This document shows positions 43,488 to 44,534 of a stretch of 59,521 nucleotides of DNA, piece after piece (within the stretch, counting starts at the first letter, position 1; the number at the start of each line of letters is the position of its first letter). The DNA is from Candidatus Fibrimonas termitidis (GTDB taxonomy: Bacteria > Fibrobacterota > Fibrobacteria > Fibrobacterales > Fibrobacteraceae). The translations under genes and the position numbers were made by a program. The DNA is taken from positions 401-59,921 of the forward strand of contig LIUG01000158.1 of NCBI GenBank assembly GCA_001462245.1, written 5' to 3'. Below the pieces are notes generated by a model. That model had not been told where the DNA came from, made no database searches, and saw only the letters and a list, made by a program, of their open reading frames with translations.

Positions 43488-44534
43488 TCAGGAATATAGT
43501 AAACTCCACGCCCTTACCTCATTGTTCTTCACCAGCACACCCGCCCTTTTCCTGAAAATAGCCGCAGCAGCTATCATCGCTCCGTTGTCTGTGCAAAGCG
43601 ATGGGGGAGGGCAAATGAGATTCAATCCGCTCTTTTCCGCCCGCTCGGCTAAAAGTTCCCTGAGCCGGTAGTTTGCGCTAACACCGCCACACAAAAGGAT
43701 GTTTTGAGCACCATATTTCTGTGCCGCATTAACCGCTTTTAAAGATAAAATATCCGCTATAGCCTCCTGCAAGCTTGCGCAAATATCCGCAATATGCTCC
43801 TTGACAAATTCCTCGCCCTTTGCCTGAGAATAGCGAAGCACTGCGGTTTTTAATCCGCTAAAGGAAAAGTCAAAGGATGCATCATTCAAGGCCCTTGGAA
43901 ATTCATGGAAATTTTTATCGCCGCTTTTAGCTAACCTGCTGATTTCCGCACCGGCAGGGTAGCCAAGCCCAAGAATTTTCCCGCCTTTGTCAAAAGCCTC
44001 GCCCGCCGCATCGTCCCTTGTTTTGCCAATGGAAACATACTCAAAATTCGGTTTCGTTAAAATTAATTCTGTATGACCGCCGGAGACTATTAGACTTATG
44101 AAATTAGTTGAGAGTTGAGAGTTGAGAGTTGAGAGTTGAGTTGAGAGTGTGGAATAGATGTGACCTTCTAGATGATTTATTCCGTAGCATTCTATGTTTA
44201 GGTCTTTTGCTAAGCCTTGTGCAAAGTTGGCGCCTACCAGCAGTGAACCCATTAGGCCGGGGCAACGGGTGAAGGCTATTTGGTTTATTTCTTCGATGTC
44301 AATTTTTGCCTCTGACAAGGCTTGTTCCAAAACAGGAACTATTTTTTCCAAATGCGCACGAGAGGCAAGCTCAGGAACAACGCCGCCCCACGCCTTATGC
44401 TCATCTATTTGACTATAAAGACAATTGGATAAAATTTCAATGGAATCTCCATTTTCCCGCAACACAGCGCAAGCCGTATCATCGCAACTGCTCTCAATGC
44501 CGAGCCAAATATTTGCACAACTCTCAACTCTCAA
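43488..44534 (-). CDS. tsaD: tRNA N6-adenosine threonylcarbamoyltransferase TsaD
   Basis: LGIESSCDDTACAVL, GINHLEGHIYS, LIVSGGHTELI, GLGYPAG. TTG start lies inside the heptamer array. Confidence 0.9.
   Translation of the reverse strand: MRVESCANIWLGIESSCDDTACAVLRENGDSIEILSNCLYSQIDEHKAWGGVVPELASRAHLEKIVPVLEQALSEAKIDIEEINQIAFTRCPGLMGSLLVGANFAQGLAKDLNIECYGINHLEGHIYSTLSTQLSTLNSQLSTNFISLIVSGGHTELILTKPNFEYVSIGKTRDDAAGEAFDKGGKILGLGYPAGAEISRLAKSGDKNFHEFPRALNDASFDFSFSGLKTAVLRYSQAKGEEFVKEHIADICASLQEAIADILSLKAVNAAQKYGAQNILLCGGVSANYRLRELLAERAEKSGLNLICPPPSLCTDNGAMIAAAAIFRKRAGVLVKNNEVRAWSLLYS
44106..44148. repeat. heptamer array AGTTGAG x5 perfect plus truncated unit, translated in-frame inside tsaD
   Basis: Units 44106-44140, then TTGAGAGT. 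The sense strand reads TCAACTC-type units encoding STLSTQLSTLNSQLST between EGH and SGGHT. Confidence 0.95.

Follow-up and report, generated by a model that had tools for sequence, protein, structure and literature searches.

Mazel (1990) and Mrazek (2007) reportedly described the heptanucleotide repeats known as STRR in cyanobacteria and an excess of heptamer simple sequence repeats (SSRs) in bacteria, and the Rickettsia palindromic elements (RPEs) of Ogata et al. (2000) are said to be inserted in frame within protein-coding genes. Here we examine a heptanucleotide repeat, AGTTGAG (CTCAACT on the opposite strand), in a stretch of 59,521 nucleotides (59.5 kb; hereafter the window) from Candidatus Fibrimonas termitidis (Fibrobacterota; contig LIUG01000158.1), where arrays of it are translated in frame inside tsaD and miaA, two genes for enzymes that modify A37 of tRNA. 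These two arrays are very probably copies of a dispersed heptamer microsatellite, and the copies that persist in frame point to linkers of the encoded proteins that tolerate insertions.

A known system of dispersed heptamers is the TAACTGA direct repeat of marine Beggiatoaceae, with about 169 sets that are mostly intergenic (MacGregor 2015, PMC4679880). In its forward sense this unit has stops in all three frames, and the sets often overlap the upstream stop and lie near the next start; in the reverse sense it encodes LSVISYQ, with copies inside 10 open reading frames (ORFs) (PMC4679880). The unit is common to Beggiatoaceae, cyanobacteria and Bacteroidetes, and the same paper relays Mrazek's bacterial heptamer excess together with the idea that seven bases may match the polymerase contact length (PMC4679880). 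G-rich heptamers in Xanthomonas and Nostoc are variable in unit number and prefer positions near ORF ends (Rehm 2015, PMC4692102). A translated heptamer is known from NeuO, the O-acetyltransferase of Escherichia coli K1, whose AAGACTC tract is in frame and gives a full-length protein only if the number of units is divisible by 3; its tracts range from 3 to 53 units, and 66% of genomes are OFF (PMC13001214).

In tsaD, the plus strand at 44106–44140 reads AGTTGAG five times without a mismatch and continues with TTGAG and AGTG, which amounts to five perfect units and a 5-base partial unit with CTCAACT as the coding sense. The translation across the array contains HLEGHIYSTLSTQLSTLNSQLSTNFISLIVSGGHT, and the array peptide, T-L-S-T-Q-L-S-T-L-N-S-Q-L-S-T, occupies residues ~129–143 of the 348-residue ORF (120–134 of the 339-residue query). 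In miaA, 4.7 perfect AACTCTC units at 31545–31577 are followed by CTCCC-AACTCTC-AACTC up to 31594, about 6.7 units in total, and are translated as RILELSTLNSQLSTPPNSQLKRV; here the array peptide is L-S-T-L-N-S-Q-L-S-T-P-P-N-S-Q-L at residues ~164–179. The initial annotation of this DNA had reported five perfect units plus a truncated one in tsaD and a second in-frame array in miaA, and at both sites the letters and the translations agree with it. The identity of the two hosts is firm. TsaD scores 394 bits against TIGR03723, a curated equivalog with a cut-off of 296.1, matches solved TsaD structures in the PDB (E = 2e-73) and carries H112, H116, S142–T146 and D307, which are invariant in the alignment. 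MiaA scores 219 bits against TIGR00174 (cut-off 148.65) and matches solved MiaA structures in the PDB (E = 2e-40).

The coding properties of the unit are as that annotation had worked them out: the TCAACTC sense is stop-free, three units (21 bases) encode the same cyclic heptapeptide S-T-L-N-S-Q-L in every frame, and gain or loss of one or two units shifts the reading frame whereas three units add or remove 7 residues. The AGTTGAG sense, by contrast, contains a TGA stop whichever frame is read.

The window holds six AGTTGAG arrays and two arrays of a second heptamer, GGGTATR/CCCATAC. Two-unit AGTTGAG matches (at most one mismatch) number 20, against 0.03 expected from shuffles. A census of perfect arrays of at least three units compared 156 kb of DNA from the clade with 1.3 Mb from unrelated bacteria. 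The density of perfect period-7 arrays is 90 per Mb in the Fibromonadales loci and 3.8 per Mb in the controls, and periods 5, 6, 8, 9, 10 and 11 showed no enrichment; AGTTGAG itself forms 12 arrays in the 156 kb of clade loci. No sequencing run matched a 10-kb stretch of the window, and the sole public run that shares words with it is a termite gut metagenome (run X1; 6% of words), available as unitigs that break at the arrays. In this run word depth is ~190,000 over the array and ~300 on the tsaD flanks, and dozens of unrelated sequences flank the array.

A unit present at many loci, an enrichment specific to period 7, a patterned orientation and polymorphism in unit number are thus found together, as in dispersed heptanucleotide SSR families of the STRR or TAACTGA type. 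Like TAACTGA, AGTTGAG forms dispersed 7-base sets whose forward sense carries stops and lies between genes, whose reverse sense is translatable and occasionally intragenic, and whose unit recurs across lineages. It differs in the unit and in the host, an uncultured termite-gut member of Fibrobacterota. Intragenic TAACTGA copies lie mostly at protein termini, whereas AGTTGAG copies lie in the middle of essential or housekeeping enzymes, and the recolonisation of the tsaD and miaA loops by different repeats across relatives is a further difference. With the cyanobacterial STRRs the arrays share period-7 specificity, dispersal, a mostly intergenic location and variable unit number; STRRs, however, are described as mainly non-coding, and the G-rich ones as under-represented in ORFs. 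Membership of the AGTTGAG arrays in the STRR type rests on the behaviour of the repeat, not on shared ancestry.

Orientation and position follow a strict pattern. All four non-intragenic AGTTGAG arrays of the window lie at junctions of co-directional genes, and all four are forward relative to both flanking genes, with the upstream TGA inside the array, while arrays of the AGTTGAG family inside genes invariably have the reverse, stop-free orientation. Counted over all loci, 23 arrays terminate an ORF of at least 100 residues and 27 are intragenic in the reverse sense. Intragenic survival is limited to the reverse sense because the AGTTGAG sense has TGA in every frame. The orientation rule, which the initial annotation had regarded as a possible sign of function, is therefore a necessary consequence of stop codons, and a functional explanation is unneeded. 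At the ybbR/tsaD junction the only possible start of tsaD is a TTG within the array (..GAG TTG AGA GTT GAG AGT TGT..); the gene begins TTG AGA GTT GAG AGT TGT (LRVESC), and the TGA of the last unit has mutated to TGT. The relatives P0003 and P0007 are likewise called with an LRVESC N-terminus, and in P0002 these residues follow the start. Each forward unit contains TTG, TGA and the purine-rich GAGAG, so that between genes of one direction a forward array could serve as a stop/restart cassette. The arrays of the window show neither a conserved flank nor a target-site duplication, and we rejected both.

Both intragenic sites coincide with the one place at which the protein varies in length. In TsaD, the sole sizeable internal length variation among 36 clade sequences falls at query residues 122–133, and in the clade sequences of MiaA it falls at residues 167–177; all other length variation in the two proteins is at the termini or does not exceed three residues. 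The TsaD segment between HxEGH and SGGHT measures 15–28 residues in the clade, against a constant 20 in Fibrobacter, and the MiaA segment at the array site measures 16–33. AlphaFold confidence (predicted local distance difference test) dips to 72 at the TsaD array (mean 89.7) and to 55 at the MiaA array (mean 91.9), where it is the lowest block of the protein and predicted coil. The solved TsaD 8iey lacks 6 residues at this point, where the alignment has a gap, and the TsaD array site is the connector from the HxxxH helix to the first strand of the second subdomain. The placement of both arrays in a variable segment between conserved blocks, as first annotated, is thus borne out by the indel pattern and by the drop in confidence. 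A (CCCATAC)x4 array in dprA lies in the linker between DNA_processg_A (residues 3–205) and DprA_WH (residues 248–277) as defined by Pfam; the relatives L207 and L205 carry decayed versions of it that differ in length by 6 bases.

The closest TsaD and MiaA proteins are 75–91% identical and come from termite-gut metagenomes and metagenome-assembled genomes (MAGs) named Candidatus Fibromonas sp., Fibromonadales, Fibromonadaceae or Fibrobacteria bacterium; the proteins of Fibrobacter are ~56% identical to those of the window. Fibromonas is a termite-associated lineage of Fibrobacteres (PMC4704652). A TsaD scan of genome contigs with the pattern CTDNGAMI, which is universal, returned distant phyla only.

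An alignment of orthologues, which the initial annotation had proposed as a check, revealed that the loops of the relatives are repeat-derived too and differ in the number and type of units. At the DNA level, the tsaD loop reads (CTCAACT)x4 in L081 and (AATTCTC)x4.5 in L083. In L082 it holds instead a 28-base perfect palindrome, GTAGGGGCGTTGC-CT-GCAACGCCCCTAC (10367–10394), translated as VGALPATPL, of which L205 has a decayed copy (10388–10400). In about 19 of 53 TsaD loops of the clade, the peptide pattern visibly betrays a repeat origin, the sources being AACTCTC, AATTCTC, other period-7 peptides or the palindrome. Many MiaA loops carry decayed sequence of the STLNSQL type, such as NSQLSAPNSQPN or NSQLPTLNSQLN, and the shortest read GESTLNSR, which, read from the protein and not from DNA, may encode about two heptamer units.

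The 28-base palindrome is a second, RPE-like repeat class that uses the same permissive tsaD site, and it is a close analogue of RPEs. Like RPEs, the heptamer arrays are repeated DNA, selfish or neutral, that otherwise conserved proteins tolerate in frame at their surface. They differ in structure: RPEs are palindromic and ~100–150 bp long, whereas the arrays are direct tandem repeats of a heptamer without self-complementarity and imply no transposition machinery, so that only the separate element of L082 and L205 is palindromic. VGALPATPL is present in the tsaD loops of P0005, P0006, P0026, P0027, P0032 and P0049, and the palindrome occurs elsewhere in a termite-gut contig (L145, 7558–7585).

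Unit number differs between relatives at the junctions as well. The folB/dprA array has about 10 units in L207 (13291–13383) and about 29 in L208 (11600–11800), two short-read assemblies with 100% identity over 11.7 kb and 99.85% over 7.5 kb; at the same junction L205 carries about 2 units and the window about 5. The longer array of L208 is interspersed with AATTCTC variant units. At the ybbR/tsaD junction the count is 0, 4.7 (window) or 7.7 (L081), these numbers too being taken from short-read assemblies. Within the genes, P0002, P0003 and P0007 share one 4-unit tsaD tract, while the window exceeds its nearest relative by 12 bases at both sites, as 7 + 5 in tsaD (relative to L081) and as 10 + 2 in miaA. 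These 12-base changes look like 7-base slippage that was filtered or compensated to a net multiple of 3, and a slip costs little to compensate within the array, where all frames yield one peptide. Among ~53 clade TsaD sequences none is out of frame, the best 120 matches include no split C-terminal TsaD fragment, and every MiaA relative continues through the loop at full length.

Arrays of the same heptamer are not confined to enzymes that act on A37. Metagenome contigs with an exact (AGTTGAG)x4 match span 32–69% G+C among the matches listed, to which the following counts also refer. At least 23 stop-free-sense arrays lie inside long ORFs, and Pfam identified 19 of the 20 array-bearing proteins scanned. 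The hosts are an NqrF-like protein, NqrB (two contigs, same site), MetH (two contigs), aconitase, MutL, Mfd, NadK, LptF/G, ResB/CcsA, a GT4 glycosyltransferase, a reductase of the non-ribosomal peptide synthetase type, an MqnA-like, a DUF6377 and a Golvesin_C protein, and the tRNA enzymes GltX, TruA and MnmE. Most of the arrays fall between Pfam domains, for instance in the MutL linker, between the N and C domains of NadK, between the catalytic and anticodon-binding domains of GltX and between the FAD and NAD domains of NqrF. The host set is wider than the A37 enzymes already in the window, because dprA holds its own in-frame array there. The initial annotation had drawn a link between the two hosts, A37 modification and reading-frame maintenance; given the dprA array and at least 19 Pfam-identified proteins elsewhere with the same heptamer, that link is not supported, and the A37 modification common to both hosts is therefore most likely a coincidence.

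Several other explanations of the arrays have to be weighed. In a contingency locus, slippage by one unit would reversibly switch tsaD or miaA off and produce subpopulations with altered t6A or i6A and altered decoding or frameshift fidelity; the initial annotation had pointed in this direction by calling the tsaD array slippage-prone. The unit is indeed not a multiple of 3 and lies in coding sequence, where one unit more or less shifts the frame, the 7 + 5 bases that separate tsaD of the window from L081 could be a frameshifting slip with a compensating change, and NeuO demonstrates that translated heptanucleotide tracts can be phase switches (PMC13001214). What the relatives contain argues otherwise. 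Like that of NeuO, the tsaD and miaA tracts are translated in frame, but the NeuO tract is 5'-proximal, long (most commonly 20 units) and part of an accessory, phage-borne gene, whereas ours are short (4–6 units), placed mid-gene in core tRNA-modification enzymes rather than 5'-proximally in accessory surface genes, and ON in all sequences seen. All ~53 clade TsaD sequences are in frame and unsplit, against the 66% of neuO genomes that are OFF; neither common OFF alleles nor a long 5'-proximal accessory tract accompanies the coding SSR of non-triplet unit. The retention of one 4-unit tract by P0002, P0003 and P0007, and identical in-frame arrays in aconitase, MetH, Nqr and MutL, where switching is implausible, likewise make a switch highly improbable. 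Very little credence is due to the related idea that tRNA-handling enzymes (TsaD and MiaA in the window; MnmE, TruA and GltX in other metagenomic contigs) are preferred hosts and that slippage heritably and reversibly lowers t6A or i6A and so tunes decoding fidelity; under it, an allele with one unit more or less could be partly rescued, given that the peptide is the same in all frames of the array, by ribosomal frameshifting, which increases if A37 lacks its modification, or by another small indel at any point of the array, and the 7 + 5-base tsaD allele of the window could be the trace of such a rescue. The peptide might alternatively be an adaptive linker, in which STLNSQL is selected for loop length or flexibility or for contacts with TsaB, TsaE or tRNA, and unit number modulates activity. 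Such selection would fit a segment kept in frame in several relatives, units that are perfectly homogeneous despite ~13% nucleotide divergence between lineages, and a NeuO activity reported to increase with repeat number (PMC13001214). Relatives nonetheless carry 15–28 unrelated residues at the site, including a translated palindrome, or no repeat at all, and this turnover argues against a specific requirement; with low AlphaFold confidence at the arrays and the same peptide in unrelated enzymes, we regard an adaptive linker as quite unlikely.

The arrays could also have been imported, by gene conversion, as a miniature inverted-repeat transposable element (MITE)-like unit with array termini or by horizontal transfer, in a process that is directed to certain sites or captured there, instead of arising by slippage in situ from chance seeds. 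This would account for the same heptamer at many loci and in distant lineages, for a 129-base insert in L207 bounded by inverted arrays, with similar pairs in L103, L145, L154, L160 and X1, and for the dispersed palindrome in the same tsaD loop of L082 and L205; MacGregor raised horizontal transfer as well (PMC4679880). On the other hand, the window arrays lack conserved flanks and target-site duplications, and the inverted pairs have no spacer sequence in common. The more distant L205 has seeds of about 2 units at the orthologous folB/dprA and namZ/ftsX junctions, and the short MiaA loops GESTLNSR may, on a protein-level reading, encode about two units; such seeds fit expansion and contraction in situ, and import appears unlikely. 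An assembly or sequencing artefact deserves practically no weight. Short-read assemblers do mishandle tandem repeats and the X1 unitigs break at arrays, but the arrays do not disrupt the frame of long conserved ORFs, are found again at identical codon positions in independent JGI, ENA and NCBI assemblies, are point-mutated in relatives, and are connected with tsaD flank sequence in the X1 unitigs. We rejected an artefact because independent assemblies carry decayed versions of the arrays.

The reading we prefer, a dispersed microsatellite filtered by its hosts, can be put as follows. Arrays would grow, shrink and become homogeneous through replication slippage, and selection would decide where they persist. 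Copies in the AGTTGAG sense, with TGA in each frame, would survive only at gene ends and junctions; copies in the CTCAACT sense, which encode the polar STLNSQL, would survive within genes where a surface linker tolerates changes in length and the net length is divisible by 3. Each of TsaD and MiaA has exactly one such internal site, the one occupied by the array, and the translated segment would be a tolerated passenger linker rather than a regulatory device. A new regulatory mechanism acting on tRNA modification is not currently supported. Some points weigh against this account. Slippage as the generating mechanism is something we infer from the arrays, and the neutrality of the peptide is assumed. 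The contrast between 10 and 29 folB/dprA units comes from short-read assemblies, which can mis-size repeats. The 3 tRNA enzymes among the 19 hosts in the matches listed are a weak hint of non-random host choice, although this share, slightly above what gene counts predict and in a category set post hoc, is unremarkable among conserved multi-domain housekeeping enzymes. The recurrence of one heptamer at many sites and in distant phyla is left unexplained.

These results extend the little-studied heptanucleotide repeat phenomenon, previously seen in cyanobacteria, Beggiatoaceae, some Bacteroidetes and xanthomonads, to termite-gut Fibrobacterota. They bear on the interplay of microsatellites with selection on open reading frames, as in the compensated 7 + 5-base changes, and they bring out two by-products, loop hotspots that are recolonised by different repeats and a signature of frame-compensated indels. 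The repeats mark the single indel-tolerant linker of highly conserved enzymes, and its independent colonisation by several repeat types amounts to a natural experiment; the array sites can guide the choice of positions in TsaD, MiaA and DprA that should tolerate an insertion. The positions of all features are collected in Table 1.

Table 1. Positions of host genes and heptamer arrays in the window, and of inverted array pairs in other contigs (contig handle given before the position).
Feature	Position	Strand	Remarks
tsaD (t6A37 transferase subunit)	43488..44534	minus	metal-binding HxxxH, SGGHT and CTDNGAM blocks intact
tsaD heptamer array	44106..44148	minus	in frame; coding sense CTCAA + (CTCAACT)x5
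miaA (i6A37 dimethylallyltransferase)	31058..31966	plus	TIGR00174 match
miaA heptamer array	31545..31594	plus	in frame; (AACTCTC)x4.7, CTCCC, AACTCTC, AACTC
Second heptamer array (CCCATAC)x4 in dprA	33701..33729	minus	in frame; encodes PHTPYPIPHT
Forward (AGTTGAG)x4.7 array	44516..44552	minus	ybbR/tsaD junction; ybbR TGA stop and tsaD TTG start
Forward array	34382..34416	minus	folB/dprA junction; folB stop inside, dprA ATG directly after
Forward degenerate array	39368..39397	minus	namZ/ftsX-ECD junction
Forward (AGTTGAG)x4.7 array	2266..2300	plus	dapA-like/Omp85-like junction; upstream stop within array
(GGGTATA)n array, ~6 units	40891..40933	unassigned	intergenic, just 5' of hemerythrin gene ATG
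Inverted pair	L207 17460-17593
Inverted pair	L103 2543-2648
Inverted pair	L145 9953-10084
Inverted pair	L154 2805-2910
Inverted pair	L160 829-933

The inverted pairs have the form (AGTTGAG)n, an AT-rich spacer of 30–85 bases and (CTCAACT)n, and recur in unrelated contigs and at joints of X1. The pair in L207 constitutes the 129-base insert between the M23 peptidase and ftsX genes and is absent from the window; such pairs could be terminator-like hairpins or MITE-like units.

Around tsaD, a segment of ~3 kb in the window (40456–43504), between namZ and tsaD, contains the hemerythrin gene and three ORFs, one of them matching DUF6345 and two without a Pfam match. L207 and L081 lack the (GGGTATA)n array upstream of the hemerythrin gene in their orthologous region. 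In L205 and L082 namZ directly follows tsaD, and in L083 a Sua5/TsaC gene follows it. Between the tsaD stop and the DUF6345 gene (43402–43476) lie 2.6 copies of a 17-base direct repeat, TTTTTTGAGAAAAACCC, with a TTGACA-like hexamer at the end, and two copies of a 12-base direct repeat, TTATTGTAGGAC; both could have a promoter or operator role. In Rfam, the window matches RNase P RNA alone, with nothing at the arrays; this bacterial class A RNA (14821–15181, plus strand, 312 bits) is a tRNA-processing gene that carries no array.

In the aconitase gene of L125 (978–3833; a contig with 54% G+C), the array encodes LFSQLSTLNSQLF in place of a longer stretch between GIVHQV and PDTLVGTDSHT. We take the corresponding AcnA segment (NLEYL...) to be normally conserved, and the array may represent a damaging replacement or mark a pseudogene. 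A protein search with (STLNSQL)x6 returned short ORFs of 33–74 residues without a Pfam domain that run across long arrays and are mostly cyanobacterial. Among the matches listed, long AGTTGAG arrays occur in Microcoleus, Tychonema, Nostoc, Calothrix and Richelia and in a Planctomycetaceae MAG, and the ORFs on them (P0241–P0360) are annotated as short hypothetical proteins or 'prefoldin'. The MnmE gene of the termite-gut contig L148 contains two in-frame arrays, (CTCAACT)x4 at 178–205, encoding NSQLSTLNSQL, and (GAGTGGA)x4 at 622–649, encoding GVESGEWRVES; the latter unit is a one-base variant of the forward unit that lacks TGA and is translatable in the forward sense.

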